A DNA stretch of 59,521 nucleotides. It comes from Burkholderiales bacterium. GTDB lineage: Bacteria; Pseudomonadota; Gammaproteobacteria; Burkholderiales; JBEEJL01. This document shows, piece by piece, positions 23,660 to 55,991 of the stretch. Where the stretch lies: assembly GCA_049698095.1 (NCBI GenBank), contig JBAVXA010000037.1:1-59521 (forward strand). The letters run 5' to 3'. Every line of letters begins with the position of its first letter. Positions within the stretch are counted from its first letter, which is position 1. The position numbers and the translations under genes are program-made. Under the pieces are notes generated by a model. It saw nothing but the letters and a program-made list of their open reading frames with translations. It searched no databases and was not told the origin of the DNA.

Positions 23660-24103
23660 CTAGCGGTAAATCAGCACTGGAATTTTGCTGTGCGTCAGCA
23701 CCTTGTTGGTTTCGCTGCCGAGCACCAGCGCACCCAAGCCGCGGCGGCCGTGCGAGGCCATGAAAATCAGATCGCAACCGTGCGTCTGCGCCACCTTGAT
23801 GATTTCTTCATACGGCTGCGCGCTTTCGCATAACTCTGTCGCACACTCGACGCCCGCGTTTTTCGCGCTCGCTTCGATGAAGCCGAGCAAGGCCTTTGCC
23901 CTCGCCTCTTCCAGTCGGGAAAATTCTTCAGGAGAAATTGGCTCGACCGGGATATATTCGCCATACACCATGACGGGATATTTTTCCGTGGCATAAAACC
24001 CGACGACCTTTGCCTTGATTTCGCTTGCGAACTGGATCCCCGCCTGCACGGCTTTGCGCGACAACTCCGAACCGTCGGTCGGGATAAGTATTTTCTTGAA
24101 CAT
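23660..24103 (-). CDS. Universal stress protein (UspA family)
   Basis: MFKKILIPTDGS N-terminus and the C-terminal ATP-binding G-x2-G-x9-G(S/T) motif (SHGRRGLGALVLGSETNKVLTHSKIPVLIYR). Confidence 0.9.
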   Translation of the reverse strand: MFKKILIPTDGSELSRKAVQAGIQFASEIKAKVVGFYATEKYPVMVYGEYIPVEPISPEEFSRLEEARAKALLGFIEASAKNAGVECATELCESAQPYEEIIKVAQTHGCDLIFMASHGRRGLGALVLGSETNKVLTHSKIPVLIYR

Positions 24104-24192
24104 GATGTCTCCTTTAGACTAATTATTTTTGCTCGCTGGCCGCAATGGCGGCGGCTCCTTCTAACAACATAACGAATTCGGTGCCAGCTGGT

Positions 24193-24206
24193 TTGATACA
24201 TGTCAA
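24193..24206 (-). promoter_or_regulatory. FNR/ANR-type box upstream of usp
   Basis: TTGATacatGTCAA (9/10 to TTGAT-N4-ATCAA). On the minus strand a TTATGT hexamer begins 20 nt past the box, which is class II geometry. The box is 96 nt from the usp ATG. Confidence 0.55.
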
Positions 24207-24324: not shown

Positions 24325-25410
24325 ATGCAAGATCCTATGATTGAAGACCCGTCGAAACTGGCGACCTATGTCGGAATTATCCATGCTTCAATGGAAGCGA
24401 TTATCAGTGTGGATGAACGGCAGCAGATCGTGATGTTCAATCCGGCGGCGGAACAGATGTTTCGATGCAAAATTGAAAATGCCATCGGCTCGCCGCTATC
24501 GCGTTTTATTCCCGAGCGCTTTCGCGCGGTGCATGACCAGCACATGCAGCGTTTCGGGAAAACCGGTACCAGCGAACGCCGTATGGGCAAGCAGCTCGCG
24601 CTGTTCGGCCTGCGCGCCGACGGAGAAGAATTCCCGATTGAAGCGTCCATTTCGCAAATCGAGCAGAATGAAAAAAAGCTGTTTACCGTTATGCTGCGCG
24701 ACATCACGCAACGTAAACGCTATGAGCACGAACTCGAAGCCTCGCGCCACCAATTACGCGAATTGGCCGCCAGCGTTCAAGCCGCGCGCGAGGAGGAAAA
24801 AGCGCGCATCGCGCGCGAGTTGCACGACGACCTCGGGCAACAGCTCACCGCATTGAAAATGGATTTGAGTTGGTTGGCTCACAGACTGCCGCAGGACAGC
24901 CCGGATTTGGCGGAAAAAATCAGGGCCATGCAGGCGTTGACTGACACCAGTGTCGCGTCCCTCAGACGCATTGCTTCAGATTTGCGACCGACCATGCTTG
25001 ACGATCTCGGATTGGCGCCCGCCATTGAGTGGCTGGCACAGGATTTTTCCCGGCGTACCGATATCAACGTTCACTTGAACATGGTGCAGCGCGCGCAACG
25101 GTTGACCAAGAATGCAGAAACCGCCATTTACCGCATCGTCCAGGAGTCGCTCACCAACGTGATGCGTCATGCCCGCGCGACCAACGTATATATTACGACG
25201 GAGTATACTGCGAATGGCTTCCTGCTCAAGATCCGTGACGACGGGGTCGGCATCAGTCCGGCGTCGCGCCGCAAGGCAAATTCTTTTGGCCTGCTGGGCA
25301 TGAAAGAGCGGGTGCACGGGTTTGGCGGTGCCATCAGTTTTTCCGCAGTGCCCGATCGCGGCACGACGATCGAAGTCGAATTGCCGCGCAACATAATTCA
25401 AGAGGAATAG
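24325..25410 (+). CDS. Cytoplasmic PAS-domain sensor histidine kinase (HisKA_3 / NarX-DegS class)
   Basis: No TM segments. PAS domain (EAIISVDERQQIVMFNPAAEQMF...FTVMLRDITQRK). H-box ARELHDDLGQQLT. HATPase_c N and G boxes (QESLTNVMRHA, DDGVGI, GLLGMKERV). Confidence 0.9.
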   Translation: MQDPMIEDPSKLATYVGIIHASMEAIISVDERQQIVMFNPAAEQMFRCKIENAIGSPLSRFIPERFRAVHDQHMQRFGKTGTSERRMGKQLALFGLRADGEEFPIEASISQIEQNEKKLFTVMLRDITQRKRYEHELEASRHQLRELAASVQAAREEEKARIARELHDDLGQQLTALKMDLSWLAHRLPQDSPDLAEKIRAMQALTDTSVASLRRIASDLRPTMLDDLGLAPAIEWLAQDFSRRTDINVHLNMVQRAQRLTKNAETAIYRIVQESLTNVMRHARATNVYITTEYTANGFLLKIRDDGVGISPASRRKANSFGLLGMKERVHGFGGAISFSAVPDRGTTIEVELPRNIIQEE

Positions 25411-25417
25411 ACGCAGC

Positions 25418-26071
25418 ATGATAAAGGTTCTGATAGCCGACGACCACGCCATTGTGCGGCAAGGGCTGAAACAGGTGCTCGCCGAGGCCGACGACATGCA
25501 GGTTGGCGGCGAGGCCACCAATGGCCTCGAAACGCTGGAGCAAATCCGCAATCACGATTGGAGTGTCGTGGTCATGGATATGTCCATGCCTGGTCGCAGC
25601 GGTATCGAACTCATCAAACTGGCAAAGGCCGAACGACCCAAACTGCCGATATTGATTCTCACCATGCATAGCGAAGACCAGTACGCCATGCGGGCGCTGC
25701 AGGCCGGCGCATCAGGATATATGACCAAAGAAAGCGCGCCGGAACAACTGGTCAACGCGATCCGCAAGGTGGCGGCCGGTGGCGTTTATGTCAGTGCTGC
25801 CACGGCAGAAAAACTGGCACAGAATATCAGGCCGGGCAATGAGGCATTGCCGCACACGCGCTTATCCAACCGCGAGTTCGAGGTTTTTCAGATGCTCACT
25901 ACAGGAATCAGTTTGTCTGAGGCGGCGCAAAAACTGTCGCTGAGCGTGAAAACCATCAGCACTCACAAGACCCATATTCTGGCAAAACTCAATCTTGCCA
26001 ACCAGACCGAACTCGTTCGCTATGCGATCAAACATGGGTTGGCCGACGAAGCGGGCTCCCAGACACACTGA
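25418..26071 (+). CDS. NarL/FixJ-family response regulator (REC + LuxR-type HTH)
   Basis: Receiver (VLIADDH, VVVMDMSMPG, K in YMTKE) and C-terminal LSNREFEVFQMLTTGISLSEAAQKLSLSVKTISTHK. Lies 7 nt after the kinase gene. Confidence 0.95.
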   Translation: MIKVLIADDHAIVRQGLKQVLAEADDMQVGGEATNGLETLEQIRNHDWSVVVMDMSMPGRSGIELIKLAKAERPKLPILILTMHSEDQYAMRALQAGASGYMTKESAPEQLVNAIRKVAAGGVYVSAATAEKLAQNIRPGNEALPHTRLSNREFEVFQMLTTGISLSEAAQKLSLSVKTISTHKTHILAKLNLANQTELVRYAIKHGLADEAGSQTH

Positions 26072-26074
26072 TCT

Positions 26075-26533
26075 CTACTGCGTTTTCCAGCCGCCGTCGG
26101 CCTGCCGGCAAGCCGTTCCGGTAACTTTTTCTTTATTGCCGCCAATCGTCGCATCGACCGTGTATTCGCGGCACGCACCGCTGGCATTTTCGATGGTTCT
26201 GGTCGGAACCACAGTATAGCGGTTACCCGAATCCGGATTGCGCCAGCTGGATGCCACACCGGTTCGCACATTCTCCAGTGCATGCGCCGTTTTCAGACGA
26301 TCGGTATCGTCCATCGATCTGCCTACCGATCCACCAATAGAGCTACCGATCAGCGTACCGAGAATGGTGGCGGTCGTGCGGCCGGTGCCCTGCCCTATCT
26401 CTGACCCGACAACGCCGCCCAATACGCCGCCGATTACCATGCCCGTTTGCTCACGCGGCGGCGGCGACGTACATGCCGTTGGTAGCGACGCACAGAATGC
26501 GATTACTAAAGCCAATGGTGATAATTTCATCAT
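26075..26533 (-). CDS. Outer-membrane lipoprotein, glycine-zipper / 17-kDa surface-antigen-like
   Basis: Lipobox LPTAC after the signal peptide. Gly-zipper GGVLGGVVGSEIGQGTGRTTATILGTLIGSSIGGSVG. C-terminal CREY...ACRQADGGW module typical of this family. Confidence 0.8.
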   Translation of the reverse strand: MMKLSPLALVIAFCASLPTACTSPPPREQTGMVIGGVLGGVVGSEIGQGTGRTTATILGTLIGSSIGGSVGRSMDDTDRLKTAHALENVRTGVASSWRNPDSGNRYTVVPTRTIENASGACREYTVDATIGGNKEKVTGTACRQADGGWKTQ

Positions 26534-26541
26534 GCGCCTTA

Positions 26542-26549
26542 TTAATTAA
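26542..26549. repeat. Target-site duplication (left) of the IS1595-family element
   Basis: TTAATTAA immediately outside the left IR. An identical octamer lies at 27400-27407. 8-bp duplications are the norm for IS1595-family elements. Confidence 0.65.
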
Positions 26550-27399
26550 GGTAATTAGGGCGACACGTAACCAAAATAGAGTTTCAGGAACTGCTTAAAC
26601 AGGTTCTCGCCACGATGATTATAACGATACTCAATTTCCTTCAGACACATCGGGAAATAATACTTTGACACACAGCGGTAGTTATACCAAATATGTTTGG
26701 CATAGCTCCAGAAACCTTCGATGCCGTTAATGTGATTCTTGGTGCGCTTATACTCAAACGATTTACTGTGACTCACCACATGATGCTTGCCATAACGCTG
26801 CAACGATTGGTACCCGCGAAAGGCATCGGTGTAAAATACCGAGCCCTTGCGCGTGCGTTGCTCGATGTGGCGCATCAAGGTCGCGGCGCTGACATTCTCC
26901 ACCACCTTGGTATAGACCCGACCGTCCCGCTTCAAGAGGCCAAACACGATACTTTTACCCGCCGCACCACGTCCGCGCATCCCTTTGCGATGGCCACCAA
27001 AGTACGATTCATCCAATTCAATCTCAACGGCCAGCTTGCTGCCTTTGAGTTCTGCCATGTGATACAGCGCTTCGCGCAAGCGCTGGTAAATACGCGTCAC
27101 CACCTTGACGTCCACCGCCAAGTCGTTGGCCAGGCGATACGCCGGTTGTTGCTTGTAGAACCCCATCAGGATGGCGATCTCTCGGCGCAACCGCGACAGA
27201 CTCTTTTGCTTGGCGCACAATCGGCACTTGACGTACCCACGGGCGGTCTTGTTCACCTTGAACGAGCCGCAATAAAGGCACTTGCGCACCCGCAAATAGT
27301 TGGCCGCACAATTAAACACGCTCCATTTACCGGTCGTTTTGCCTATGGTAACCATACCTATCTCCTAGGATACTCTGGTTACGAAACGCCCTAATTACC
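26550..27399 (-). mobile_element. IS1595-family insertion sequence (850 bp), apparently intact
   Basis: Terminal inverted repeats GGTAATTAGGGCGACACGTAACC (26550-26572) and GGTTACGAAACGCCCTAATTACC (27377-27399) match at 20/23. There is a single transposase ORF. The element is flanked by 8-bp direct repeats TTAATTAA. Confidence 0.85.
26555..27355 (-). CDS. IS1595-family (ISXO2-like) DDE transposase
   Basis: N-terminal zinc ribbon (CLYCGS...CRLC). DDE_Tnp_IS1595-type core (IELDESYFGG..., VFYTDAFRGYQSL, INGIEGFWSYAKH). Confidence 0.9.
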   Translation of the reverse strand: MVTIGKTTGKWSVFNCAANYLRVRKCLYCGSFKVNKTARGYVKCRLCAKQKSLSRLRREIAILMGFYKQQPAYRLANDLAVDVKVVTRIYQRLREALYHMAELKGSKLAVEIELDESYFGGHRKGMRGRGAAGKSIVFGLLKRDGRVYTKVVENVSAATLMRHIEQRTRKGSVFYTDAFRGYQSLQRYGKHHVVSHSKSFEYKRTKNHINGIEGFWSYAKHIWYNYRCVSKYYFPMCLKEIEYRYNHRGENLFKQFLKLYFGYVSP

Positions 27400-27407
27400 T
27401 TAATTAA
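27400..27407. repeat. Target-site duplication (right) of the IS1595-family element
   Basis: TTAATTAA immediately outside the right IR. Confidence 0.65.
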
Positions 27408-27457
27408 TCGCAGGAAAATTCCTATGAATAAGATAATTAAGTTGAACATCGGCCCGT

Positions 27458-27471
27458 TTGATATAGATCAG
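27458..27471 (-). promoter_or_regulatory. FNR-type box (9/10), likely the former promoter element of the lipoprotein gene
   Basis: TTGATatagATCAg. On the minus strand a TATCTT hexamer begins 22 nt past the box. The IS now lies between this site and the lipoprotein gene. Confidence 0.4.
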
Positions 27472-27569: not shown

Positions 27570-27583
27570 TTGATCCAAGTCAA
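27570..27583 (+). promoter_or_regulatory. FNR-type box upstream of the cytochrome c gene
   Basis: TTGATccaaGTCAA. A GATATT hexamer begins 21 nt downstream. The box centre is about 156 nt upstream of the ATG at 27733. Confidence 0.45.
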
Positions 27584-27732: not shown

Positions 27733-28158
27733 ATGAAAATTTCAAAAATTGGAGCAGCTCTGATTGGCGTCGTGCTGGCTGCGATGTCTGCAATGGTTTT
27801 AGCGGCGGATAAGGTTGACCTGGGCAAGAAGGAGTTTGAAGCCAATTGCGCGGGTTGCCACGGCGTCAAAGCGAAAGGCGATGGGCCATTTAAGCCGTAC
27901 CTGAACAAGATCGCCCCGGACTTGACAGTGCTCACAAAAAACAACGGAGGAGCATTTCCGTTCGCCCGCGTCTATGAAACGATAGATGGCACGAGCGAAG
28001 CATCGGTCCATGGCACGCGCGACATGCCTATTTGGGGGACGGTGTATAAGATCAAGGCGGGCGAGTATTATGGAGATGTGGACTACGTGCCGGATTACTT
28101 TGTGCGCAGCCGGGTTCTGGCGCTGATCGATTATATAAACCGGCTGCAGGTGAAGTAA
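27733..28158 (+). CDS. Class I c-type cytochrome (monoheme), exported
   Basis: Start at ATG 27733 behind AAAGGA. Signal peptide MKISKIGAALIGVVLAAMSAMVLAA. Single heme motif CAGCHG, and a distal Met (RDMPIWG) as the likely sixth ligand. Confidence 0.85.
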   Translation: MKISKIGAALIGVVLAAMSAMVLAADKVDLGKKEFEANCAGCHGVKAKGDGPFKPYLNKIAPDLTVLTKNNGGAFPFARVYETIDGTSEASVHGTRDMPIWGTVYKIKAGEYYGDVDYVPDYFVRSRVLALIDYINRLQVK

Positions 28159-28210
28159 CACACGCCTGCGATCGCAAAAGTTTCTGAAAAGCCCGGTATT
28201 TGGGTTAATC

Positions 28211-28228
28211 GGCGCTGTGTGCAGCGCC
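28211..28228 (+). terminator. Possible terminator after the cytochrome c gene
   Basis: GGCGCTG-TGTG-CAGCGCC (7-bp stem, 4-nt loop) followed by a T-containing tract (GTTATCGGGCGTTGTTT). Confidence 0.4.
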
Positions 28229-28402
28229 GTTATCGGGCGTTGTTTCGGACGTACGCCGACCATTTTCTTTTTACATAGATCATTTCATCAGGCCGAACCG
28301 GCGTGACAGGGAATAGCGTTTGCCAGGCGCTGGTTCGATGGCCGGGTGATTTAATAAAAACTTTACTTTGATTTATAAGCTTGTTGCGCATAGGGCGACA
28401 AA

Positions 28403-28864
28403 ATGAAAAAAGAAATTCGCCGCTTCATCAATGAAATTATGGATCATCAGCCTGATCTGACGCTCGCGACATTGCGCGCGGACGGCTGGCCGCAGGCAAA
28501 TACCGTGAGCTATGCACACGACGGTCTGGTGATTTATTTTGGCACCGCGAAAGACAGCCAGAAAGTCAAGAATATCAAACATTGCGACAAGGTTTCGTTA
28601 ACGATCAATGAAGAATACGGTGGAGACTGGAACAAAATCAAAGGAATTTCGATGGCGGCCACGGCCACTATCCTGCGAGATAAGAAAAGCGTGCAATATG
28701 CCATCGATTGCATTATCAAACGTTTTCCTGTTGCCGCCGATTGGGCAAGCGTGGATGACTTGGCCAATATGGTTTATTTGAAAGTGACGCCGAGCGTGAT
28801 TTCCGTGCTGGATTATGCCCAGGGATTTGGCCACACGGAATATATAACCGTGCGAAAAGGGTAA
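28403..28864 (+). CDS. Pyridoxamine 5'-phosphate oxidase family (FMN-binding split-barrel) protein
   Basis: 153-aa ORF with LTLATLRADGWPQANTVSY...VIYFGTAKDSQKVKNI, the typical PNPOx-like split-barrel N-terminal pattern. Confidence 0.8.
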   Translation: MKKEIRRFINEIMDHQPDLTLATLRADGWPQANTVSYAHDGLVIYFGTAKDSQKVKNIKHCDKVSLTINEEYGGDWNKIKGISMAATATILRDKKSVQYAIDCIIKRFPVAADWASVDDLANMVYLKVTPSVISVLDYAQGFGHTEYITVRKG

Positions 28865-28988: not shown

Positions 28989-29002
28989 TTGATGCAGATC
29001 AA
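28989..29002 (+). promoter_or_regulatory. Perfect FNR/ANR box
   Basis: TTGATgcagATCAA (10/10). A TAcgtT hexamer lies at 29025-29030. The box centre is about 141 nt upstream of the ATG at 29137. Confidence 0.55.
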
Positions 29003-29136: not shown

Positions 29137-29640
29137 ATGAATAAGCAGGCAAACCCGATCGGAAAATTTCGCCCAATTCAGCGCGAGCAACTGTTTCCGG
29201 AGAAAATTCATGATCCCTACATGCACCGCCTCAAACCGTCCGAGCCGACTGTATGCCCGGATTGCAGGGCGAATTTCAGCAAAGGCCGATGGCAATGGGG
29301 ACACTTCCAAGGGGATGCTCAGGAAGAATTATGCCCAGCTTGCCATCGTATTCGCGACAATTTCCCCGCAGGTTACGTCGCGCTTGAGGGCACGTTTTTT
29401 GCTGAGAACCGCGACGAAATTCTACATCTGGCGCGAAATGTGGAGGCACGCGAAAAAGCGGAACATCCGCTTGAGCGTATTATGGCCGTAGCGAACGCCG
29501 CTTCGGGTGTGTTGATCACTACCACAGGCATTCACCTTGCCCGCGATATTGGCGACGCGGCGAAGCATGCCTATCAGGGAAGCCTGGAGTTTCACTACAA
29601 CGACGACGAAAACCTGTTGCGGGTGCGTTGGTCGCGTTAG
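29137..29640 (+). CDS. Conserved hypothetical protein with two CxxC pairs (zinc-ribbon-like; resembles the 'BCAM0308 family')
   Basis: AGGAG RBS. CPDC...CPAC pairs in the N-terminal third. Conserved-looking C-terminal half (LITTTGIHLARDIGDAAKHAYQG). The family name is from memory only. Confidence 0.65.
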   Translation: MNKQANPIGKFRPIQREQLFPEKIHDPYMHRLKPSEPTVCPDCRANFSKGRWQWGHFQGDAQEELCPACHRIRDNFPAGYVALEGTFFAENRDEILHLARNVEAREKAEHPLERIMAVANAASGVLITTTGIHLARDIGDAAKHAYQGSLEFHYNDDENLLRVRWSR

Positions 29641-33444: not shown

Positions 33445-33685
33445 CGATGCCTTTTGGGCGTAAATTCCGTGGCGCGTCTGCTCAATGCAGGGCTTGCATG
33501 CCAGTAATGTTGTCCGCGCCGCTTCCGCACACCGCCTGATCTCGGAACCGACGGTAGGAATTTTCCTACGCCTCCCCCCTTTTCTTCCGATGCAAATTTC
33601 AGCATTCGCTGAATGATTTCTGCAAAACCGCCGGCCATACTGGATGCACAAGCCGGATCTGGCAGGGTTTTCGCAGGGAGAAAAT

Positions 33686-34060
33686 ATGAACGTATATCTG
33701 GTCGAAGATTCTGAACTGGTTCGCCAGCGGCTCAGGGCAATGGTGAACGATATCAGCGGCATGTGCGTCACGGGTGAGGCCGAAACACCCATGCGCGCGA
33801 TCGATTCCATTGTGCGCACCAAGCCCGACGCGGTAGTCCTCGATATTGGATTGGTTGGCGGCAGCGGAATGTCTGTTCTGCGCCAGGTGCATGAACTTGA
33901 GCCGCTGTTACCCTTTATCGTATTGACGAATTATTTCAGTCAGGAGTTTGGGCGGGAGTGTTTGCGTGCCGGGGCAAAATATTTTTTCGATAAAACCAAC
34001 GAATTCGAGAAGATTGGAAGTGCGTTGGTTCAGATTGCAACATCAAAAACAGCGAATTAA
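33686..34060 (+). CDS. Stand-alone response-regulator receiver (CheY-like)
   Basis: MNVYLVEDSELVRQRL..., phospho-acceptor context DAVVLDIGL, and a T/K pair (IVLTN..., AKYFFDK). No output domain. GGGAG RBS before ATG 33686. Confidence 0.85.
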   Translation: MNVYLVEDSELVRQRLRAMVNDISGMCVTGEAETPMRAIDSIVRTKPDAVVLDIGLVGGSGMSVLRQVHELEPLLPFIVLTNYFSQEFGRECLRAGAKYFFDKTNEFEKIGSALVQIATSKTAN

Positions 34061-43540: not shown

Positions 43541-43598
43541 TTGCTTTGAATTTCTTTACGTTTAGACGTCGCGGGAGAAAGCGCAAAATGCCATGCAT

Positions 43599-43967: not shown

Positions 43968-44010
43968 GCGAACCTATATCCCTGATTGACTACATGGATT
44001 TAGAATCAAG

Positions 44011-45669: not shown

Positions 45670-46008
45670 TCAAATATCGGATTCGGCGACATCATCTCCA
45701 CCTTCATTCAGCAAATTATCCAGATCCTCGCTCCCATCAGCAACACCGCCGTCTTCCTCTGCAGCTTGCAAATTTTGCCGCTTCGCGTCGGAGAGTGCCG
45801 TCAGGGGCGTGTGGCGTTCCGCAGGATCAAACGGCGCGGTGAACTTGTCCTCGTCGGCACCTTGCGGATCAACCGCATTCCTCGCTCTGGCGCGCTGGCG
45901 GACTGACGGCTTACGCGCCGCATTCGCATCGGAAGGTTTCGATGTTTTTGCCCCCCGGGCGAGTCTTGTTCCCGAGTGTGCAATGTGCTTGTCAATGGTT
46001 CCTGGCAT
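45670..46008 (-). CDS. Hypothetical low-complexity protein (basic N-half, acidic C-half)
   Basis: AGGAG RBS 8 nt before ATG 46008. 112 aa, predicted disordered. First gene after a perfect FNR box with a TATAAT -10. Confidence 0.6.
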   Translation of the reverse strand: MPGTIDKHIAHSGTRLARGAKTSKPSDANAARKPSVRQRARARNAVDPQGADEDKFTAPFDPAERHTPLTALSDAKRQNLQAAEEDGGVADGSEDLDNLLNEGGDDVAESDI

Positions 46009-46146: not shown

Positions 46147-46160
46147 TTGATCTATATCAA
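46147..46160 (-). promoter_or_regulatory. Perfect FNR/ANR box with consensus -10
   Basis: TTGATctatATCAA (10/10). On the minus strand TATAAT (46125-46120) begins 21 nt past the box, placing the box centre near -41.5. Confidence 0.7.
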
Positions 46161-48051: not shown

Positions 48052-48065
48052 TTGATATGCATCAA
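48052..48065. promoter_or_regulatory. Perfect FNR/ANR box between divergent nrdJ and the PRTase gene
   Basis: TTGATatgcATCAA (10/10). The box centre is 70 nt from the nrdJ ATG (47988). GATACT begins 21 nt past the box toward nrdJ, and cAGAAT begins 21 nt past it toward 48170. Confidence 0.7.
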
Positions 48066-48169: not shown

Positions 48170-48814
48170 ATGATTTTTTCGAACAGGAATCAAGCCGCCG
48201 CGCTGCTCGCACAACGTTTGCAGGAATATGGCGGCGGCCCGCTGGTTCTAGCCATCCCGCGCGGGGCAGTGCCGATGGGCAAAATCATTGCCGATGCATT
48301 GGGCGGCGAGCTTGATGTCGTGCTCACGCGCAAACTGCGCGCACCGGGAAATCCGGAATATGCAATCGGCGCAATCGATGAGACTGGCTGGGCGTACATC
48401 TCGGAATTCGCGTCATCCGCAGGTGCCACGCCCGAATATATTGAGGAAGAAAAAAAGACTCAACTCGATACCATTCGCCGTCGCCGCAAACAATATACGC
48501 CAATACATAAAGCCGCCGATCCTGAAGGCCGCACGGTAATAGTGGTCGACGATGGGCTGGCCACAGGCGCTACCATGATCGCGGCCCTGCATGCATTGCG
48601 TGCGCGCGCTCCAAAAATACTGATTTGTGCCGTGCCCGTGGCGCATCCGGAAACCTTGAAGAAAGTGGCGCTCTATGCGGATAAAGTCATTTGTCTGCAT
48701 AGCCCTCCGGATTTTTATGCCGTCGGCCAGTTTTACCGCGATTTTCCCCAGGTTGAGGACGATGAAGTGATCGGAATCTTAGCCAGTACAGGCAGCGACA
48801 AATCCAGCCCCTGA
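48170..48814 (+). CDS. Phosphoribosyltransferase-family protein
   Basis: N-terminus FSNRNQAAALLAQRL...VLAIPRGAVPMG and PRPP loop VIVVDDGLATGATM. This is the same architecture as the PRTase half of PRTase/hydrolase pairs. Confidence 0.85.
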   Translation: MIFSNRNQAAALLAQRLQEYGGGPLVLAIPRGAVPMGKIIADALGGELDVVLTRKLRAPGNPEYAIGAIDETGWAYISEFASSAGATPEYIEEEKKTQLDTIRRRRKQYTPIHKAADPEGRTVIVVDDGLATGATMIAALHALRARAPKILICAVPVAHPETLKKVALYADKVICLHSPPDFYAVGQFYRDFPQVEDDEVIGILASTGSDKSSP

Positions 48815-48869: not shown

Positions 48870-48883
48870 TTGATCTAGGTCAA
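48870..48883 (+). promoter_or_regulatory. FNR-type box upstream of the second usp
   Basis: TTGATctagGTCAA (9/10). GATAAT/TAATCT lies 19-21 nt downstream. The box centre is 70 nt from the ATG at 48947. Confidence 0.6.
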
Positions 48884-48946: not shown

Positions 48947-49384
48947 ATGTTTAAGACAATCCTGATTCCGACTGACGGCTCGGCGCTTTCAGAAAATGCC
49001 GCAAAAAAATCACTGCAATTGGCCAAATCGCTGAACGCAAAAGCGGTGGGATTCTATTCTATTGAGCCGTTTCACATCCTGGCCGCCAATACGGAAATGA
49101 TGAGTGATACGCGCGAAGTTTATGAACGGGATTCGAAATTGCGCGCAAGCTCCTCGTTAGCAAAAATTGAAGATTTCGCGCGTTCAGCGGGTGTTGCCTG
49201 TGAATGCGTCAGCGGGCAGGACGATAGCCCCTGGCAAGGCATCATCAAGGCCGCGCAATCCAAAGGTTGTGACCTTATAGCCATGGCTTCGCACGGTCGC
49301 ACCGGAATGCAGGGCATTTTGATCGGCAGTCAGGCCAACCACGTCTTGACGCATTCGAAAATCCCGGTTCTGATTTTTAGATAA
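48947..49384 (+). CDS. Universal stress protein (UspA family)
   Basis: MFKTILIPTDGS N-terminus and C-terminal SHGRTGMQGILIGSQANHVLTHSKIPVLIFR. GGAG RBS. Confidence 0.9.
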   Translation: MFKTILIPTDGSALSENAAKKSLQLAKSLNAKAVGFYSIEPFHILAANTEMMSDTREVYERDSKLRASSSLAKIEDFARSAGVACECVSGQDDSPWQGIIKAAQSKGCDLIAMASHGRTGMQGILIGSQANHVLTHSKIPVLIFR

Positions 49385-49528: not shown

Positions 49529-49529
49529 A

Positions 49530-50192
49530 TTACAACCTGCCTTTAAACCATTCCGCTGCCAACCGCGCCGCCTCTTCCAATGTTCCCGGCTCCTCGAACA
49601 GGTGAGTTGCTCCCGGGATAATCTGCATTTGTTTTTCGCAGCTTAGATATTCATAGGCGATCTGGTTAAGCTGAATGACCTCGGCGTCATCGCCGCCTAC
49701 AATCAGCATCGTAGGCGCGAGCACTTTGCGTAACGAATCCTCGCCGGCTAGATCAGGGCGACCGCCGCGCGATACGACGGCACCGATTTCTCCACCGAAC
49801 TGCGCCGCGGCGCGCAATGCCGCCGCCGCACCGGTACTGGCGCCGAAATAACCGATTCGCATCCCGGCGGTCCGACTGGCGGTAGCCAGCCAGTAAGTGG
49901 CGCCGATGAGCCTTGACGTTAACAATGCGATATCGAAGCGCGTCGCGTAGTTTGCGTCTTCCGCGGGCGTCAGCAAATCGATCAACAGGCTGCCGATACG
50001 AGCCGCGTGCAGCACATCGGCGACAAAGATATTGCGCGGGCTGAAGCGGGAACTGCCGCTGCCGTGGGCAAACAGAACGACTGCCTTTGCGCCAACCGGC
50101 AGTGTCAGCGTGCCCTTCAATTGGACGTTCCCAGTCGAAATGACGACTGTGGAAGCGTGCGAAAAATCCTGAACGTCGCCCGGCGGGTTCAT
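49530..50192 (-). CDS. Dienelactone-hydrolase-type alpha/beta hydrolase
   Basis: VVLFAHGSGSSRFSPRN, nucleophile elbow GASTGAAAAL, and C-terminal GATHLFEEPG (His). Confidence 0.85.
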   Translation of the reverse strand: MNPPGDVQDFSHASTVVISTGNVQLKGTLTLPVGAKAVVLFAHGSGSSRFSPRNIFVADVLHAARIGSLLIDLLTPAEDANYATRFDIALLTSRLIGATYWLATASRTAGMRIGYFGASTGAAAALRAAAQFGGEIGAVVSRGGRPDLAGEDSLRKVLAPTMLIVGGDDAEVIQLNQIAYEYLSCEKQMQIIPGATHLFEEPGTLEEAARLAAEWFKGRL

Positions 50193-50211: not shown

Positions 50212-50700
50212 TTATTTTCGCGGGCTCTCGCCTGCGCTTTTCTGTTCCTGCATTTCGCGTTCGATCATTTGCTGCATCATCGATTGCATCATGTCCATGC
50301 GTTTTTCCATCATCTCATGGTGTTTCATCATGCCGCCCTGCATCATACCGCCTGGCTTCATCGCGCCTTCTTTCATTCCGCCGCCCATCATTCCTCCGCC
50401 CATGCAACCGCCGCCGCCGCTCATGCCGCACATCATGCCCATGCCATCGCGCATGGCCTGCATGTGTTCCTGCATGAGTTTCTGCTTCTCGGCCGGGTCG
50501 GACGTGGCGCGAATTTTTTCCATCTGCATTTGCATTTTTTTCATGTGGTCCTGCATGGCAGATTGCGCCGCGTCCGCGCTGCCAGGCGCAGTTGCTGCTG
50601 CGGCGCCGTGTCCGGCATGGCTTCCGGCGGATGGCGGGGCGGCACAGCCAAATTGTAGAAGTGCAACGGCCAGACCAGACAATTTCAGTAGATTTTTCAT
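50212..50700 (-). CDS. Methionine/glycine-rich lipoprotein
   Basis: Signal peptide with lipobox LLQFGC. The mature part is dominated by M-x-M / MM motifs plus His and two Cys (GMGMMCGMSGGGGCMGGGMMGGGM). By my count there are 31 Met in 162 residues. GAGGA RBS. Confidence 0.7.
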   Translation of the reverse strand: MKNLLKLSGLAVALLQFGCAAPPSAGSHAGHGAAAATAPGSADAAQSAMQDHMKKMQMQMEKIRATSDPAEKQKLMQEHMQAMRDGMGMMCGMSGGGGCMGGGMMGGGMKEGAMKPGGMMQGGMMKHHEMMEKRMDMMQSMMQQMIEREMQEQKSAGESPRK

Positions 50701-50757: not shown

Positions 50758-50771
50758 TTGATACAGATCAA
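50758..50771 (-). promoter_or_regulatory. Perfect FNR/ANR box upstream of the Met-rich lipoprotein gene
   Basis: TTGATacagATCAA (10/10). The box centre is 64.5 nt from the ATG at 50700. A TAAATT hexamer begins 22 nt past the box on the minus strand. Confidence 0.7.
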
Positions 50772-50809: not shown

Positions 50810-53401
50810 TTATGGTTTGAACGGGTTGAAGCGTCGGGCTAACTCAAACCAAAGCAAGCCGGCGACCGCCGCGGCGAGACAAAGGGCGATGCCCTCAGGC
50901 GGCATGCTCGCAAAGCGGAATATCGACTGCATCTGGGGCACATAGATCGCCAGTGCAAGAGCGAAGAGGGTTCCGCTGACTATCCACCAAAGCGCCGGGT
51001 TGGGTGTGCGCAGTACGGTGATAAAGCTTTGATGCCGCGCCAGATTAGTGAGTATCAGCCCGATATTGCCGAACACGATTGTCGTAAAGGCATAGGTTCT
51101 TGCCAGTTCATCGGACATTCCGGTTTGCAGCACGCCCCAGTACAGGAGCCAAATCGCGGCAAGCACGCCTGCCCCTTGAAGCAGGCTGGTCAACACAATA
51201 TCGGCATTCAGTAAATGATCGTCCGTCCGGCGCGGCGCCCGCTGCATGGCGTTTTTTTCTGCAGGCTCAGCCTCAAATGCAATTGAACAGGCCGGGTCGA
51301 TTATGAATTCCAGAAATACAATATGAACCGGATAAAAAACCAGTGGCCAGCCGAACAATAACGGGACCAGCGCCATGCCGGCCGTCGGCACGTGCACCGC
51401 GATGATGTAGCACATCGCTTTCTGGATATTGTCAAAAATTTGCCTGCCCAATTTGACGGCATGCACAATCGAGGCGAAATCATCGCGCAGCAGCACCAGT
51501 GCCGCCGCTTCACGCGCCACATCGGTGCCGCGCTGCCCCATCGCGACGCCAATATGCGCGGCTTTGAGCGCCGGCGCGTCGTTAACCCCATCGCCGGTCA
51601 TCGCGACGATTTCCCCTGCGCTTTTGAATGCCTGCACCAGTCGCAATTTTTGTTCCGGCATGATGCGTGCAAAAATATTCACGCTGCCAATGCGCGCCTG
51701 CAATTCAGAATCGCTCATTTGCTGTAATTCGGCACCGGTAATCGCATGCTCATTGGGATGCAGGCCAATCTGGCGCGCGATGGCCTGCGCGGTGACGGGG
51801 TAATCGCCGGTAATCATCACCGTGCGGATGCCGGCCTGATAACACTCCTTCAACGCCGGCACCACGCTGGGCCGCACCGGATCTGCCAGCCCGATCAAGC
51901 CGACAAAACTGAAATCGAAGCCGTGCGGCGTCGGAGGCCACGCGCCGCTTTGGAAGTTGGCCATGGCAGACGCTTTTGCTACCGCCAATACACGCAGGCC
52001 GTTACTCGCCATGCGCTGCACCTCTGCTTCAAGATGTTCCCATTGCCGGGGATCCAGATGGCATAACCCTGCAATCGCTTCCGGCGCACCTTTGCTCGCG
52101 ATAATATATAACTCATTGTTTTTATTATATTTTGCGTGCCAGACGTGAGTGCGCGCGAGCAGTTGCGTTGTCAGGGAATACTCGTGTACCAATTCACGCT
52201 GCGTATGTTGCTGTGGGAAATCATGCAGATGGTCTTTGCCCAATGCATGAAATGCTTTTTCCATCGGGTCGAACGGCTCGGCCGCGCTGGATAGGATGCT
52301 GTACTCGACTAACGCGTGAAATTCTTCCGGCAGGGTTCGTTTTGCCAATCCGTCGATCAGGCAGCCTTTACCGTTCGCGTACAACTCGCGCACCGCCATC
52401 TGGTTTTGCGTGATGGTGCCGGTTTTATCCACACAAAGCACGGTTGCCGAACCCAATGTTTCAATGGCAGGCATGCGGCGCGTGAGGACGTGCTGTTTTG
52501 AAATGCGCCAGGCGCCGAGCGCCATGAATACCGTCAGCACCACGGGAAACTCTTCCGGTAGATTTGCCATCGCCAGGGTAATGCCGGCGAGCAGACCGCC
52601 AATCCAGTCCTGCCGCGTGATGCCGTAAAGGGCCACCACCGCGGCGCATAACGTCAGGCCGATTAGCGCGAACACCATCACTGCGCGCCGCGTCTCCAGC
52701 TGCATCGGGCTGGCCTCCTGCGTCACCGACTGCAGCGCCTTGCCTATTTTGCCCATTTCCGTTGCCAGGCCGGTGGCCAGCACCTGCGCCGTAGCGTGGC
52801 CTTGCACCGCGAGGGTGCCCGAATATACGAACGGCAGGTCATCGCCCCCGGGCCGCTGCATCGGCTGCGCAACACTGCCGGCGATTTTTGCCACCGCCAC
52901 GGACTCCCCGGTCAACAATGATTCATCGGTCTTGAAATCATTGCAGGAAAGCAGGACCGCGTCGGCTGGTACCCGGTCGCCTTCTTTTAGCAGCATGATG
53001 TCGCCGCGCACCACGTCGCGTCCGGCAATGCGGCGCGCTTCACCGTCGCGCAGCACAAGCGCGCGCGGGCTTGACAGGTCGCGCAAGGCTTCCAGCGCGC
53101 GCTCGGTCTTGCGCTCCTGAAAAAACGTGATGCCGAGCATAACCAGCACCGAGACCATCAACACCAGCGCCTCGCGCACATCCCCCAGAAAGAGATAAAT
53201 GGTCGCCGCAGCGATCAGCAGCAGGAACATCGGTTCGCGCACGACCTCCAGCGCGATGCGCCAGAGGCTGCGCGGCCTGGACGAGGGCAACTCATTTGCA
53301 CCGTCCTTGTGCAAGCGTGCAGCCGCCTGCGTTGCACTGAGCCCGGTCGCGGGGTCGGTGGCGATACTGGCTGGTTCCTGTGTAGCAGGCTCGTTATCCA
53401 T
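50810..53401 (-). CDS. P-type cation-transporting ATPase (P2-type, Ca2+/PacL-like)
   Basis: TGES, DKTGTITQN, MITGD, GDGVNDAPALK. 863 aa with 10-TM architecture. Ion specificity cannot be determined from the sequence alone. Confidence 0.9.
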   Translation of the reverse strand: MDNEPATQEPASIATDPATGLSATQAAARLHKDGANELPSSRPRSLWRIALEVVREPMFLLLIAAATIYLFLGDVREALVLMVSVLVMLGITFFQERKTERALEALRDLSSPRALVLRDGEARRIAGRDVVRGDIMLLKEGDRVPADAVLLSCNDFKTDESLLTGESVAVAKIAGSVAQPMQRPGGDDLPFVYSGTLAVQGHATAQVLATGLATEMGKIGKALQSVTQEASPMQLETRRAVMVFALIGLTLCAAVVALYGITRQDWIGGLLAGITLAMANLPEEFPVVLTVFMALGAWRISKQHVLTRRMPAIETLGSATVLCVDKTGTITQNQMAVRELYANGKGCLIDGLAKRTLPEEFHALVEYSILSSAAEPFDPMEKAFHALGKDHLHDFPQQHTQRELVHEYSLTTQLLARTHVWHAKYNKNNELYIIASKGAPEAIAGLCHLDPRQWEHLEAEVQRMASNGLRVLAVAKASAMANFQSGAWPPTPHGFDFSFVGLIGLADPVRPSVVPALKECYQAGIRTVMITGDYPVTAQAIARQIGLHPNEHAITGAELQQMSDSELQARIGSVNIFARIMPEQKLRLVQAFKSAGEIVAMTGDGVNDAPALKAAHIGVAMGQRGTDVAREAAALVLLRDDFASIVHAVKLGRQIFDNIQKAMCYIIAVHVPTAGMALVPLLFGWPLVFYPVHIVFLEFIIDPACSIAFEAEPAEKNAMQRAPRRTDDHLLNADIVLTSLLQGAGVLAAIWLLYWGVLQTGMSDELARTYAFTTIVFGNIGLILTNLARHQSFITVLRTPNPALWWIVSGTLFALALAIYVPQMQSIFRFASMPPEGIALCLAAAVAGLLWFELARRFNPFKP

Positions 53402-55991
53402 GGGTTCGCCGTGCGTAATATTTATAGAAGCCGCGTTTGACCAATTCGACCAGCGCCAGATAAATCACCACCATTCCAGCTAAAATCAGGAAAAACTTCA
53501 ATGGCGGCGCGACGAAGCCGAAATAGGCGCCAAGCGGCGAAAACGGCAACCATGCCGCCACCACGACCACCAGGCAGGAAGTCGCCACCAGCACCGGACT
53601 CGGCAGATTGACCAGCGGATTGCCGCGCGTACGGATGACGAATATGACCAGGGTTTGTGTCGCCAGCGATTCGATAAACCAACCGGTCTGAAACAATGCT
53701 TCATTCGCTTCAAGCACCACCAGCATCACATAAAAGGTCAGGAAATCGAAAAGCGAACTGACCGGGCCGATGGTCCACATGAAATTGCGGATGAATGCCA
53801 TGTCCCATGCCTGCGGCCGTTTCACTTCTTCCTCGTCCACCCGGTCGAGGGGAATCGCCGCCTCGGATAAATCGTACAGCATATTATTGAGCAGTATCTG
53901 CGTCGGCAGCATGGGTAAAAAAGGCAGCAGCAACGACGCCCCCGCCATGCTGAACATATTGCCGAAGTTGGAACTTGTCCCCATCAGGATATATTTGCGG
54001 ATATTGCCGAATGTCTCACGGCCGATTATCACCCCTTCATGCAACACATTCAGGTCGCGTTTAAGCAATATCATGTCCGCCGACTCTTTCGCCACATCCA
54101 CTGCGCTTTCGACGGACAATCCGACGTCGGCAGAGTGCAAAGCCGGTGCGTCGTTGATGCCGTCACCAAGATAACCGACTGTGTGCCCGCGCTGCTTCAG
54201 CGCCAGGATGATGCGGTTTTTCTGCGCAGGATTGACGCGGCAGAATAAATTGGTCTGTTCCACGCGCGCGCGCAATGCCGTGTCGCCCATATGCTCCAGC
54301 TCGTCGCCGCGCAGCACACCGGTAATGGCGATGCCGAGCTGTGCGCAGATATGCTGGGTGACCAATTCATTGTCGCCGGTGACGATCTTTACCATAACCC
54401 CACTTGCACCCAATGCCGCCATCGCTTTGGCGGCATCTTCCTTGGGCGGATCGAGAAACGCCGCGAGCCCGGCGAAAACCAGCTCGGTTTCGTCGTTGAC
54501 GACTGCGTGCGGGTAATCCAGCGCAACCTTTTTCCATGCGATACCGAGCACGCGAAAGCCGTCGCGCGCCAGGGAATCACACTGGCTCTGCAATCGTGCG
54601 CGCGTATCGCTGTCGACAATGCCGGTTTTGCCGTCAATCCCCGTTTCGTATTGCGCCGACAGGCGCAAAATATCCTCCGGCGCGCCTTTTACCACCAGTT
54701 GGCGCGAAGCGCCGTTCTCCACCAACACCGACACGCGCCGGCGTTCGAAGTCGAACGGCACTTCATCGATTTTTTTCCACTCGGAAACATCGATTTCCTC
54801 GTGCGCCAGAATCGCGTCGTCGAGAGGGCTCCTCACGCCGGTTTCGAAAAAACTGTTGATATAGGCAAGCTGCAGCACCCGCTCGCTTTCATGGCCCGTG
54901 GCGTCGACATGGCGCTCAAGTCGGATTTTTGCCTCGGTCAGTGTGCCGGTCTTGTCCGTACACAATACGTCCATGCCACCGAGATTTTCAATGGCGGACA
55001 GGCGTTTTACGATGACGTTTCGGCGCGCCATGCGCATCGCGCCGCGCGACAAGGTAACCGATATCACCATCGGTAACAGTTCCGGGGTAAGGCCGACTGC
55101 CAGCGCGATGGCAAACAAAAATGATTCCAGTAACGGTTTGTGCGACATAGTGTTCACCAAAAGCACAAACAGCACGAGGAACACGGTAAGGCGCATGATC
55201 AGCATGCCGAATTGTCGCGTGCCGATTTCAAATGAGGTCGGCGGCGGCGGCGCTTCCAGGGTTTCGGCAATTTCGCCCATCGCCGTGTTGGTGCCCGTGC
55301 GGCAGACCAGAATGCTCGCCGTGCCGCTCACAACCGAGGTGCCCATGAAGACGGCGGTCGCCGACTCCAGCATGGCTCCTGCCTGGTCGCCCGAATCGCC
55401 GCAATGCTTTTCCGCCGGGTAAGCCTCGCCGGTCAACAATGCCTGTTTTACAAACAAGTCGCGCGACTCGATCAACCTGCCGTCTGCGGGAATCAGGTCG
55501 CCCGCCGCCACCACCGCCACATCGCCCGGCACCACGTCGGCGACCGGCACTTCGCACTCGACACCGTCGCGCAATACGCTGACCTTCAGCGCAACCGATT
55601 GACGTAATTTGTCCGCCGCCCGCGCCGCCCGCGTTTCCTGAATAAAATCGATGGTTACCGACATGACAATCATGGCGGTGATAATCACGAAGCTGGTTAT
55701 TTCTCCGGTCAGAGCTGATACAAAACTGGCAGCGAGCAGAATAAGGACCAGAGGATTGCGAAACCGGCGCAGGAATTCGAGCCACAACAGGCGTTTCGGC
55801 TCGTCGCGGAAAATGTTTGGCCCCCAGCGGGTCAATCGAACCGCAGCTTGCGCACCCGGCAATCCCCGCGGCGCGCTTTGCAGAACGTCGAACAGTCTAT
55901 CGAGCGGTATGCGCCACCATTCGCTCAGGGTCGATTCTTGGGCGCGTTGGGCGTCATTGTTGCGCGCAAGGTTGTTAATCGGATTGGCCAC
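53394..55991 (-). CDS. mgtA: Magnesium-translocating P-type ATPase (MgtA type)
   Basis: Long collinear similarity to E. coli MgtA as I recall it. Shared segments are LTGEAYPAEK, GLTPELLPMVISVTL, DKTGTLTEAKI, IDEVPFDFERRRVSV, GDGINDAPAL and SSNFGNMFSMAGASLLLPFLPMLP. Overlaps the downstream ATPase gene by 8 nt. Confidence 0.9.
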   Translation of the reverse strand: MANPINNLARNNDAQRAQESTLSEWWRIPLDRLFDVLQSAPRGLPGAQAAVRLTRWGPNIFRDEPKRLLWLEFLRRFRNPLVLILLAASFVSALTGEITSFVIITAMIVMSVTIDFIQETRAARAADKLRQSVALKVSVLRDGVECEVPVADVVPGDVAVVAAGDLIPADGRLIESRDLFVKQALLTGEAYPAEKHCGDSGDQAGAMLESATAVFMGTSVVSGTASILVCRTGTNTAMGEIAETLEAPPPPTSFEIGTRQFGMLIMRLTVFLVLFVLLVNTMSHKPLLESFLFAIALAVGLTPELLPMVISVTLSRGAMRMARRNVIVKRLSAIENLGGMDVLCTDKTGTLTEAKIRLERHVDATGHESERVLQLAYINSFFETGVRSPLDDAILAHEEIDVSEWKKIDEVPFDFERRRVSVLVENGASRQLVVKGAPEDILRLSAQYETGIDGKTGIVDSDTRARLQSQCDSLARDGFRVLGIAWKKVALDYPHAVVNDETELVFAGLAAFLDPPKEDAAKAMAALGASGVMVKIVTGDNELVTQHICAQLGIAITGVLRGDELEHMGDTALRARVEQTNLFCRVNPAQKNRIILALKQRGHTVGYLGDGINDAPALHSADVGLSVESAVDVAKESADMILLKRDLNVLHEGVIIGRETFGNIRKYILMGTSSNFGNMFSMAGASLLLPFLPMLPTQILLNNMLYDLSEAAIPLDRVDEEEVKRPQAWDMAFIRNFMWTIGPVSSLFDFLTFYVMLVVLEANEALFQTGWFIESLATQTLVIFVIRTRGNPLVNLPSPVLVATSCLVVVVAAWLPFSPLGAYFGFVAPPLKFFLILAGMVVIYLALVELVKRGFYKYYARRTHG

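Follow-up and report, generated by a model that had tools for sequence, protein, structure and literature searches.

The window analyzed here is a stretch of 59,521 nucleotides from an uncultured Burkholderiales bacterium (contig JBAVXA010000037.1), and our attention was focused on a gene cluster in it, at approximately 23.6-56 kb, in which many genes are preceded by sites of the FNR type. The first 21 kb of the window are occupied by genes of housekeeping function (uvrB, RNase E, rluC, the plsX-fab group, mltG and holB), and the cluster is therefore chromosomal. Its onset lies at around 22-23.6 kb, and from there it extends as far as the window does. Scanning for Rfam families and tRNAs returned no match anywhere in the window, neither a B12 riboswitch before nrdJ nor a tRNA at an island boundary. 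A preliminary description of this DNA, made from its letters only, had assigned ten products to families, and searches of the window proteins against Pfam, NCBIfam and PDB showed all ten assignments to be correct at their coordinates. Absent from that description were the FNR gene, an orphan receiver, an MgtA-type ATPase, a second phosphoribosyltransferase (PRTase), a BCAM0308-family gene, MacB-type ABC systems and an IS1595 element. The regulatory genes, and the genes found in units headed by FNR boxes, are the following:

23660-24103, minus strand: USP1, a single-domain universal stress protein (USP; Pfam Usp, 2.8e-29; best PDB matches 4wny and MJ0577)
24325-25410, plus strand: cytoplasmic PAS-HisKA_3 histidine kinase (Pfam)
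25418-26071, plus strand: NarL-family response regulator with receiver (REC) and GerE domains (Pfam)
27733-28158, plus strand: cytochrome c gene (Pfam)
29137-29640, plus strand: orf167, BCAM0308-family zinc-ribbon protein (NCBIfam NF040826 'lxa_BCAM0308')
33644-34060, plus strand: stand-alone receiver-domain protein, directly 5' of the FNR gene (Pfam, Response_reg only)
34089-34892, plus strand: FNR/Anr-type regulator gene, 267 aa (NCBIfam Fnr subfamily)
40912 (likely start, inferred from the translation): membrane-anchored flavodoxin-like gene
41512-42492: alpha/beta hydrolase gene, after the flavodoxin-like gene
44011-44289, minus strand: 2TM protein
44347-45159, minus strand: FNT formate/nitrite channel (passes the NCBIfam TIGR00790 cutoff)
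45166-45615, minus strand: CBS-pair protein (Pfam)
45670-46008, minus strand: orf112
46180-47988, minus strand: NrdJ, adenosylcobalamin-dependent class II ribonucleotide reductase (RNR; TIGR02504 'NrdJ_Z' equivalog)
48170-48814, plus strand: PRTase, TT1426-type (Pfam; PDB 1wd5, 2e-45)
48947-49384, plus strand: USP2, a single-domain universal stress protein (Pfam, PDB)
49530-50192, minus strand: dienelactone hydrolase (DLH)-type serine hydrolase (PDB 2o2g 'dienelactone hydrolase', 1e-63)
50212-50700, minus strand: orf162, methionine-rich lipoprotein

NrdJ scores 548 bits with the TIGR02504 model (cutoff 400), and the gene calls for the orf112-CBS-FNT-2TM string agree with those on a further contig (L002).

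Searching the window for TTGATN4ATCAA with at most one mismatch returned 12 sites where 2.1 would be expected, a number that none of 100 shuffles reached. Ten of these 12 boxes fall within 24193-50771, and nine of the ten are intergenic, in a region in which intergenic DNA amounts to 14% (binomial P=1.7e-7). The remaining one, at 30573, is located inside the OsmC gene and probably represents a chance occurrence. The nine intergenic boxes are as follows:

24193-24206: FNR box TTGATACATGTCAA, common to the divergent USP1 and PAS-kinase genes
27458-27471: orphan FNR box TTGATATAGATCAG, beside the insertion sequence (IS)
27570-27583: FNR box TTGATCCAAGTCAA, preceding the gene for cytochrome c
28989-29002: perfect FNR box TTGATGCAGATCAA, 3' of the PNPOx gene, serving the BCAM0308-family orf167
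40789-40802: FNR box TTGATCCAAATCAT, about 117 bp before the likely start (40912) of the flavodoxin-like gene
46147-46160: perfect FNR box TTGATCTATATCAA, ahead of orf112-CBS-FNT, with a TATAAT hexamer 22 nt after the box
48052-48065: perfect FNR box TTGATATGCATCAA, common to the divergent NrdJ and PRTase genes
48870-48883: FNR box TTGATCTAGGTCAA, ahead of USP2
50758-50771: perfect FNR box TTGATACAGATCAA, ahead of orf162-DLH

Overall, the boxes head approximately eight units: USP1 together with the divergent PAS kinase-NarL regulator pair, the cytochrome c gene, the BCAM0308-family gene, the flavodoxin-like gene, orf112-CBS-FNT, NrdJ together with the divergent PRTase, USP2, and orf162-DLH. 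Their centers lie 64-146 bp upstream of the start codons of the genes they head (96.5 bp in the case of USP1), and a -10-like hexamer begins 20-23 nt after each box. These hexamers match TATAAT at a mean of 4.2 of the six positions, as compared to 2.86 at random intergenic positions, and the observed value was reached in none of 5000 resamples. Such spacing fits class II FNR promoters, with the site predicted to lie near -41.5. Moreover, in an unbiased palindrome search of the 25 intergenic regions (all 4- and 5-mers, gaps 0-8) the FNR box and its sub-patterns were the only motifs to recur, and no second regulatory motif was found by it.

A candidate for the protein acting at these sites is encoded in the cluster itself. 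The product of the gene at 34089-34892 carries the cysteine signature C40-x2-C43-x5-C49, a fourth cysteine within GSHSCDA and an ETVSR (E--SR) recognition helix, and it passes the cutoff of the NCBIfam Fnr subfamily (247 versus 228 bits). This FNR/Anr-type regulator is presumed to be the master activator of the cluster. We propose that, when oxygen falls, it would hold a [4Fe-4S] cluster on its four cysteines, dimerize, and bind to the TTGAT-N4-ATCAA boxes approximately 41 bp upstream of the transcription starts, thereby activating at least eight units, including the flavodoxin-like and hydrolase genes and the orf112-CBS-FNT-2TM string. NrdJ would then provide oxygen-independent synthesis of deoxynucleoside triphosphates in replacement of a class I RNR that depends on oxygen, the USPs and the CBS-pair protein may work as nucleotide-binding factors in growth arrest, the FNT channel may move small anions (formate, nitrite or similar), and the PRTase and the DLH may act as a two-part enzyme. 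Jointly, these products would support the anoxic survival of an aerobe or microaerobe. Control by oxygen, activation rather than repression, the operon structure and this physiological role are what we infer from the arrangement of genes and sites.

The arrangement was compared with those of two independent close relatives, L006/L007 (metagenome contigs) and L008 (GCA_043744215.1). The ATPase pair, the DLH, the PRTase, orf112/113, the CBS protein and the FNT channel are kept in L006, L007 and L008, all three of which have in addition an HSP20 (alpha-crystallin) gene that is found nowhere in the window. L006 and L007 further keep OsmC, USP2, the 2TM protein, the hydrolase, the second PRTase (PRTase-2) and an orf162 homologue directly 5' of the DLH gene. 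Most proteins of the relatives are 72-92% identical to those of the window, the values for OsmC, orf112 and orf162 being 41-59%; orf112 is 44% identical in L006, where HSP20 comes next. The order orf112-CBS-FNT is kept in L006 and L008 with the HSP20 gene inserted, and PhaC and a fragment of FtsH are encoded near the island in L008. In addition, the FNR boxes of the relatives occupy the same intergenic slots as in the window, to the extent that the distance from the center of the USP2 box to the start codon is 70.5 bp both in the window and in L006. With the enriched intergenic sites, their class II spacing and the local FNR gene, this agreement gives good support to the proposal of the preliminary description that the cluster is wired to FNR boxes. 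As for the neighborhood of these genes, conservation is strong in L006, L007 and L008. Over 80 genomes of many phyla, the PRTase-DLH pair alone persists.

In Ferrigenium kumadai only the DLH-PRTase pair is left, without boxes. Around further members of the BCAM0308 family, in GC-rich relatives, the gene neighborhoods resemble that of the window. In L093 (66% GC; positions 10001-14936), a perfect FNR box heads the string BCAM0308-HSP20-CBS-DLH-archease-RtcB, followed by a hibernation factor. Moreover, L094 (70% GC) encodes two CRP/FNR proteins and a PAS-HisKA_3 kinase paired with a NarL regulator, together with FtsH, a glycine-zipper protein, a homologue of BCAM0308, a hibernation factor and also a tandem USP, and it bears three intergenic boxes.

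Taken as a whole, the region from approximately 23.6 to 56 kb is probably a chromosomal low-oxygen response island of this uncultured Burkholderiales bacterium, of the same kind as the lxa locus. In Burkholderia cenocepacia J2315, lxa is a 50-gene cluster (BCAM0275a-BCAM0323) that contains six USPs, an alpha-crystallin, a class II RNR, a cation ATPase, a SulP transporter and a cytochrome c, as well as CRP regulators related to Anr, two-component systems and ABC transporters; 17 of its intergenic points bear an FNR-like motif, and the cluster is strongly induced at low oxygen and the bacterium depends on it to survive anoxia (Sass et al. 2013, PMC3721108). The product of orf167 scores 202 bits with the NF040826 'lxa_BCAM0308' equivalog (cutoff 100), and the closest known system is therefore the lxa locus. 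Compared at the level of families, both are large chromosomal clusters of Burkholderiales with USPs (two in the window versus six in lxa), a class II RNR, a cation ATPase, a SulP transporter and a cytochrome c, and both have an Anr-related CRP/FNR gene, pairs of kinase and regulator, and ABC transporters accompanied by a membrane-fusion protein (MFP). The FNR-like inverted repeat (TGA-N6-TCA) is present at nine intergenic points in the window and at 17 in lxa. Relative to the main text of the lxa paper, the window has a PRTase, a DLH, CBS-FNT, a PNPOx protein and an MgtA-type ATPase as extras, and a 2018 paper on lxa makes no mention of PRTase, CBS or DLH.

The Anr regulon of Pseudomonas aeruginosa (Trunk et al. 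2010, as cited in PMC3721108 and PMC8087004) offers a second comparison, here with the part of its published gene list that was covered. In that part it includes four USPs, the P-type ATPase PA1429 and nrdD (PMC8087004). The two systems have in common a regulator of the [4Fe-4S] FNR type with TTGAT-N4-ATCAA sites, USPs (several of which Pseudomonas needs for anaerobic survival), a P-type ATPase and an oxygen-independent RNR. They differ in several respects: Anr targets are scattered on the Pseudomonas chromosome, whereas those of the window are clustered; the Anr regulon has genes of respiration and fermentation pathways (denitrification, arginine deiminase, cbb3 oxidase), none of which is found in the window; and its RNR is of class III (nrdD), while that of the window is of class II. 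Neither PRTase/DLH nor CBS-FNT appears in the part of the Anr list covered.

The PRTase and DLH genes are separate in the window, each behind its own FNR box. No Pfam hit was obtained for the DLH open reading frame (ORF; 49530-50192) itself, but its relatives carry PF01738, and in an alignment of 34 of them (A1) the Ser, Asp and His residues are kept within the motifs GASTG, RGGRPD and GATHLFE. Searching 1.84 billion representative proteins returned 9633 DLH relatives, many of them 420-470 aa long, and all seven of the long relatives checked by Pfam carry a PRTase domain, which is N-terminal in P0124, P0126, P0133, P0137, P0158 and P0179, and C-terminal in P0152. In fusion P0124, the N-terminal half is 54% identical to the window PRTase and the C-terminal half 61% identical to the window DLH. 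Judging from these matches, the PRTase and DLH of the window are best regarded as the two halves of one natural fusion unit, here split. In Mycobacterium tuberculosis, Rv0571c is annotated as a phosphoribosyl transferase, and lies approximately 1 kb or less from nrdZ. Its coding single nucleotide polymorphisms (SNPs) reach as far as codon 339, a length well beyond that of a PRTase by itself (PMC7753917). The published SNP coordinates would place it in the 430-470-aa size class of the natural fusions. Rv0571c thus neighbors nrdZ in M. tuberculosis, and the PRTase neighbors nrdJ in the window. We take Rv0571c to be 443 aa in length, with a DLH-type C-terminus.

Scanning 185,579 species genomes with the DLH alignment returned 80 loci, distributed over many bacterial phyla and archaea at 52-67% identity. 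A PRTase gene is located at most 10 kb from DLH in 43 of these 80 loci, often adjacent or fused. The other neighbors found within 10 kb are few (USP in 5 loci, HSP20 in 7, ATPase in 4-5, NrdJ in 2, CBS in 1 and FNT in none), and conservation of the whole toolkit neighborhood across phyla was accordingly rejected. From these counts, the large cluster appears to be lineage-specific, with PRTase-DLH as its only conserved core. The same range of identity, 52-67%, holds for the DLH family among Betaproteobacteria, Nitrospirota, Bacteroidota, Actinomycetota, Patescibacteria, Cyanobacteria and archaea, the archaeal carriers being Bathyarchaeota, Woesearchaeota and Nanoarchaeia. Such conservation across domains is unusually high for an uncharacterized hydrolase and points to either horizontal transfer or strong constraint.

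In Catelliglobosispora koreensis (L075), an actinomycete, a 447-aa PRTase-DLH fusion is divergent from a tandem USP, and the 61-bp spacer between them contains AGGACTTAAGTCCC, so that the fusion lies 40-60 bp from a DosR-type box. This locus has three DosR-type boxes (0.07 expected), and within the same 16-kb stretch lie genes for another tandem USP, for HSP20, for an erythromycin esterase and for a CBS-pair protein. Identity to the proteins of the window or of L006 is 42% for the PRTase, 53% for the DLH, 41% for the CBS protein and 35% for HSP20. With these families behind DosR-type boxes in L075, and behind FNR boxes in the window, the same families are therefore found in two wirings. As to the esterase, the gene at 18182-19387 of L075 stands alone beside HSP20, an arrangement that echoes Rv2030c beside hspX in M. 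tuberculosis, and one further protein (P0149, 663 aa) has a DLH domain fused to an erythromycin-esterase domain. These echoes hint that the DLH, PRTase and erythromycin-esterase domains are linked in one functional network.

The remaining genes of the cluster include several that have no box of their own:

26075-26533: glycine-zipper lipoprotein gene
26541-27408, minus strand: IS1595-family insertion sequence (Pfam DDE_Tnp_IS1595; 38-nt terminal inverted repeats)
28403-28864, plus strand: PNPOx-family gene (Pfam)
31711-33444, plus strand: SulP-family anion transporter (Pfam, NCBIfam)
39786-40352: PRTase-2
43115-43540: small K+-channel gene
50810-53401, minus strand: P2-type ATPase, generic (Pfam, NCBIfam)
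53394-55991, minus strand: MgtA-type ATPase (NCBIfam, 916 bits versus a cutoff of 611)

The two ATPase genes, which overlap by 8 bp, have no box with at most one mismatch upstream, and the 50758 box lies 3' of them and serves orf162-DLH instead. Likewise, no box is present in 28159-28402 ahead of the PNPOx gene, the 28989 box being located downstream and serving the next gene. The preliminary description had listed both the P2-type ATPase and the PNPOx gene among those behind or beside the boxes, and by these positions neither is behind one; PNPOx could be reached solely by read-through from the cytochrome c promoter. The SulP gene has no box upstream either. For the ATPases, the only upstream candidate is a site at 59268 (TTCAATATAATCAA; TTGATTATATTGAA on the gene strand), which has two mismatches and lies ahead of an MFP-ABC-MacB-ATPase gene string; one of its half-sites lacks the G of TTGAT, and we have treated membership of the ATPases in the regulon through this site as unproven. 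The ATPase pair follows here a MacB-type efflux operon without a good box, and in L008 it follows a DUF883/holin-like/YqjK operon bearing two FNR boxes.

The glycine-zipper lipoprotein gene is a particular case. The IS1595 element, 868 bp long with inverted repeats at 26541-26578 and 27371-27408, sits 8 bp upstream of the start of this gene, between it and the orphan box at 27458. Without the element, the box would lie approximately 64 bp from the gene start, the spacing also seen at USP2 and orf162. It appears that the insertion has separated a member of the regulon from its promoter. The ends of the element show no target-site duplication.

Some points weigh against reading the region as an lxa-like low-oxygen island under FNR control. 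The alpha-crystallin, polyhydroxyalkanoate and acetate kinase/Pta genes that are prominent in lxa are missing from the window, as are its alcohol dehydrogenase, ribokinase and FtsH; of the lxa genes, HSP20, PhaC and FtsH (as a fragment) are found in the relatives L006 and L008. Since boxes are lacking at the ATPase, PNPOx, SulP and Trx2/OsmC genes and at the FNR gene itself, the island is only in part a single regulon. The host is known solely as a metagenome-assembled genome. Moreover, the boxes of FNR, Anr, Dnr, NnrR and FixK are indistinguishable by sequence, and a paralogue responding to nitric oxide (NO) or to another signal could use these sites.

This last point leads to the alternative that the boxes are used by another CRP/FNR protein, either a Dnr/NnrR-type NO sensor or FixK under a FixLJ-like system, in which case the island would respond to NO or to a phosphorelay. 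Anr, Dnr and FixK sites share TTGAT-N4-ATCAA, and a cascade from FixLJ to FixK to lxa has been proposed for Burkholderia (PMC12071387). The island does resemble such a system, known from rhizobia and from the Burkholderia cepacia complex, in having a PAS domain that is FixL-like and keeps the proximal His, a regulator of the LuxR/NarL type and a CRP/FNR factor with TTGAT-N4-ATCAA sites, plus the orphan receiver beside the FNR gene, and the related locus L094 bears two CRP/FNR genes. However, all of the FNR cysteines are present in the local regulator, which so has its own Fe-S cysteines, unlike FixK, besides passing the Fnr model cutoff; the core of the kinase is of the HisKA_3 (DesK/NarX-like) and not of the FixL type; a box precedes the kinase operon itself, which places it downstream of the box-binding factor, so that the order of the cascade appears reversed; and the palindrome search shows no second enriched motif. 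We regard this alternative as quite unlikely. It is very unlikely that the haem-PAS kinase and its NarL-type regulator are the main controller, as an analogue of DosS/DosR, with FNR fine-tuning the response. Such a role would agree with the HisKA_3 core and the NarL-family regulator, the same classes as in DosS/DosR, and with a PAS domain (residues 15-137 of the kinase) that matches the haem-PAS of FixL at 3e-13, also resembles that of DosP, both O2-binding, and conserves the equivalents of the proximal His and of Arg206. It would agree as well with the homologous kinase-regulator pairs found close to both PRTase and DLH in genomes of Binatia (L074) and Balneolales (L055), and close to DLH only in one of Geobacteraceae (L064). 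Nevertheless, the distal Arg220, needed for O2 signaling in FixL, is replaced by Leu, no NarL-type motif recurs in the intergenic regions, no DosR box is present, and most promoters are accounted for by FNR boxes. Among its PDB matches, the response regulator has VraR first and NarL next, with DevR sixth, behind VraR, NarL and ChrA; it looks like a generic NarL-family protein whose similarity to DevR does not exceed that to VraR or to NarL. DosT matches the kinase at the ATPase domain only (1e-4). The preliminary description had paired this kinase and regulator with DosS/DosR, one of the weak or failing items of the parallel, the sensor being of the PAS and not of the GAF type and the regulator showing no preference for DevR. 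Under FNR control, the box-preceded kinase/regulator pair may add a second sensory layer. We found no description of a combination of a haem-PAS with HPK7 (HisKA_3).

The preliminary description had likened the gene content to M. tuberculosis's DosR regulon and had suggested a convergent or horizontally shared module. Overlaps between lxa and the DosR regulon were explicitly listed by Sass et al. 2013 (PMC3721108). In a review of 2025 (PMC12071387) the DosR/Anr parallel is drawn for Burkholderia lxa and Pseudomonas Anr, asking whether it results from convergence or common ancestry; that interpretation is therefore essentially a rediscovery. As to how far the parallel goes, the match reaches the subfamily for NrdJ/NrdZ and the CBS pair, and by architecture and indirect evidence for PRTase plus DLH, while the USPs match at the superfamily level only and FNT, by family assignment, does not match NarK2. 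Direct alignment to M. tuberculosis proteins covered those in PDB. NrdJ and NrdZ are covered by one NCBIfam equivalog, and the top solved-structure match of the CBS protein is Rv2626c/hrp1 (3.5e-11). The USPs are single-domain and MJ0577-like, those of the DosR regulon being tandem, and align with Rv2623 (E=0.006) and with the tandem USPs of L075 only over the last 40-50 residues. PNPOx stays below every specific NCBIfam cutoff, with weak matches to mycobacterial PNPOx-like structures, so that its match to the DosR list would be at the family level only, and that of the P-type ATPase at the class level only. NarK2 is a major facilitator superfamily protein, and the FNT of the window belongs to the formate/nitrite transporter family. 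Further likenesses are the PRTase-containing Rv0571c next to nrdZ, the P2-type ATPase ctpF, and the HisKA_3 kinase with a NarL-family regulator. The DosR regulon differs in its DosR-type boxes and GAF sensor kinases, as opposed to the FNR boxes and FixL-like PAS sensor of the window, where the DosR box GGGACTTWAGTCCC has no site with up to two mismatches, and its nitroreductase (acg), tgs1, narX and fdxA have no counterpart in the window.

One may then ask whether the resemblance is superficial, with abundant families such as USP, CBS, PRTase, PNPOx and P-type ATPase overlapping by chance with a list of 48 genes and no shared module behind it. The short C-terminal USP alignments, PNPOx below specific cutoffs, FNT and NarK2 in different families, a sensor domain unlike those of DosS/DosT, the lack of DosR boxes in the window and the rarity of toolkit genes within 10 kb of DLH among the 80 loci all speak for it. 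Chance overlap is nonetheless unlikely in our view: a single equivalog covers NrdJ and NrdZ, the CBS protein finds its top PDB match in Rv2626c, PRTase-DLH fusions are 54-61% identical to both window proteins, and Catelliglobosispora has the fusion, tandem USPs, HSP20, an esterase and a CBS gene in 16 kb with three DosR-type boxes. Furthermore, relatives of the window add the DosR-like HSP20, archease-RtcB, a hibernation factor and the link to the erythromycin esterase. Archease and the hibernation-factor-like Rv0079 are members of the DosR regulon. RtcB (Rv2631) is listed in it (PMC5309233). The content of L093 accordingly makes the overlap with DosR families wider than the preliminary description had listed. 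The overlap would thus reflect the reuse of some protein families under a different oxygen-responsive regulator, not a DosR system. In the idea of a co-localized module, the FNR wiring and a partial subfamily match hold; only PRTase-DLH recurs across phyla, and the idea had already been published.

If the cluster is indeed an lxa/Anr-type island, this type of island, known from cystic-fibrosis pathogens, would extend to Burkholderiales of the environment that are uncultured and have relatives near Nitrosomonas and Gallionella, and aerobic betaproteobacteria of oxic-anoxic transition zones might in general tolerate anoxia through this gene set. The PRTase-DLH pair would be a concrete candidate for a conserved biochemical step of hypoxic persistence, and would make a clean example of how a single set of genes is rewired from one oxygen-sensing regulator to another, unrelated one. 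As a more tentative possibility, which we find doubtful at present, a loose pool of anoxic-dormancy genes may spread horizontally across bacterial phyla and some archaea, being captured repeatedly by different oxygen-responsive regulators. Its members would be Rv0571c-type PRTase-DLH, the CBS pair, HSP20, USP, NrdJ/NrdZ, the P2-type ATPase, the BCAM0308 family, archease-RtcB and the hibernation factor, wired to DosR boxes in Actinomycetota, to FNR boxes in Betaproteobacteria and possibly to haem-PAS/NarL systems in Binatia and Balneolales. Were such a pool to exist, PRTase-DLH would be its conserved core, and its biochemistry an unrecognized key step of oxygen-free persistence. The general idea has already been published and the gain is therefore incremental, the split versus fused state of PRTase-DLH and the DosR/FNR wiring being the only, modestly new, points.

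Some further features of the window were noted. A tblastn search of plasmids with NrdJ led to B. vietnamiensis pBVIE01, Sulfuricystis and Cupriavidus, where nrdJ lies among conjugation/replication genes and not in hypoxia islands, and these candidates were dismissed. Three ORFs, at 27799-28263 (minus strand), 42489-42818 (plus strand) and 43593-43985 (plus strand), were not counted as genes, as their translations look non-coding and have no family matches. The K+-channel gene at 43115-43540 is flanked by gene-poor gaps at 42493-43114 (622 bp) and 43541-44010 (470 bp), in both of which the ORFs look non-coding and the RNA-family scan gave no matches; the channel gene is missing from the syntenic region of L006. 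Two MacB-type ABC systems are also present in the window. The product of orf112 (45670-46008), which heads the orf112-CBS-FNT string, has no family match and is of low complexity, acidic and probably disordered. Finally, orf162, with no Pfam or NCBIfam match, encodes a protein extremely rich in Met, Gly and Gln, with MMxxM repeats that recall Met-rich periplasmic copper-binding proteins.

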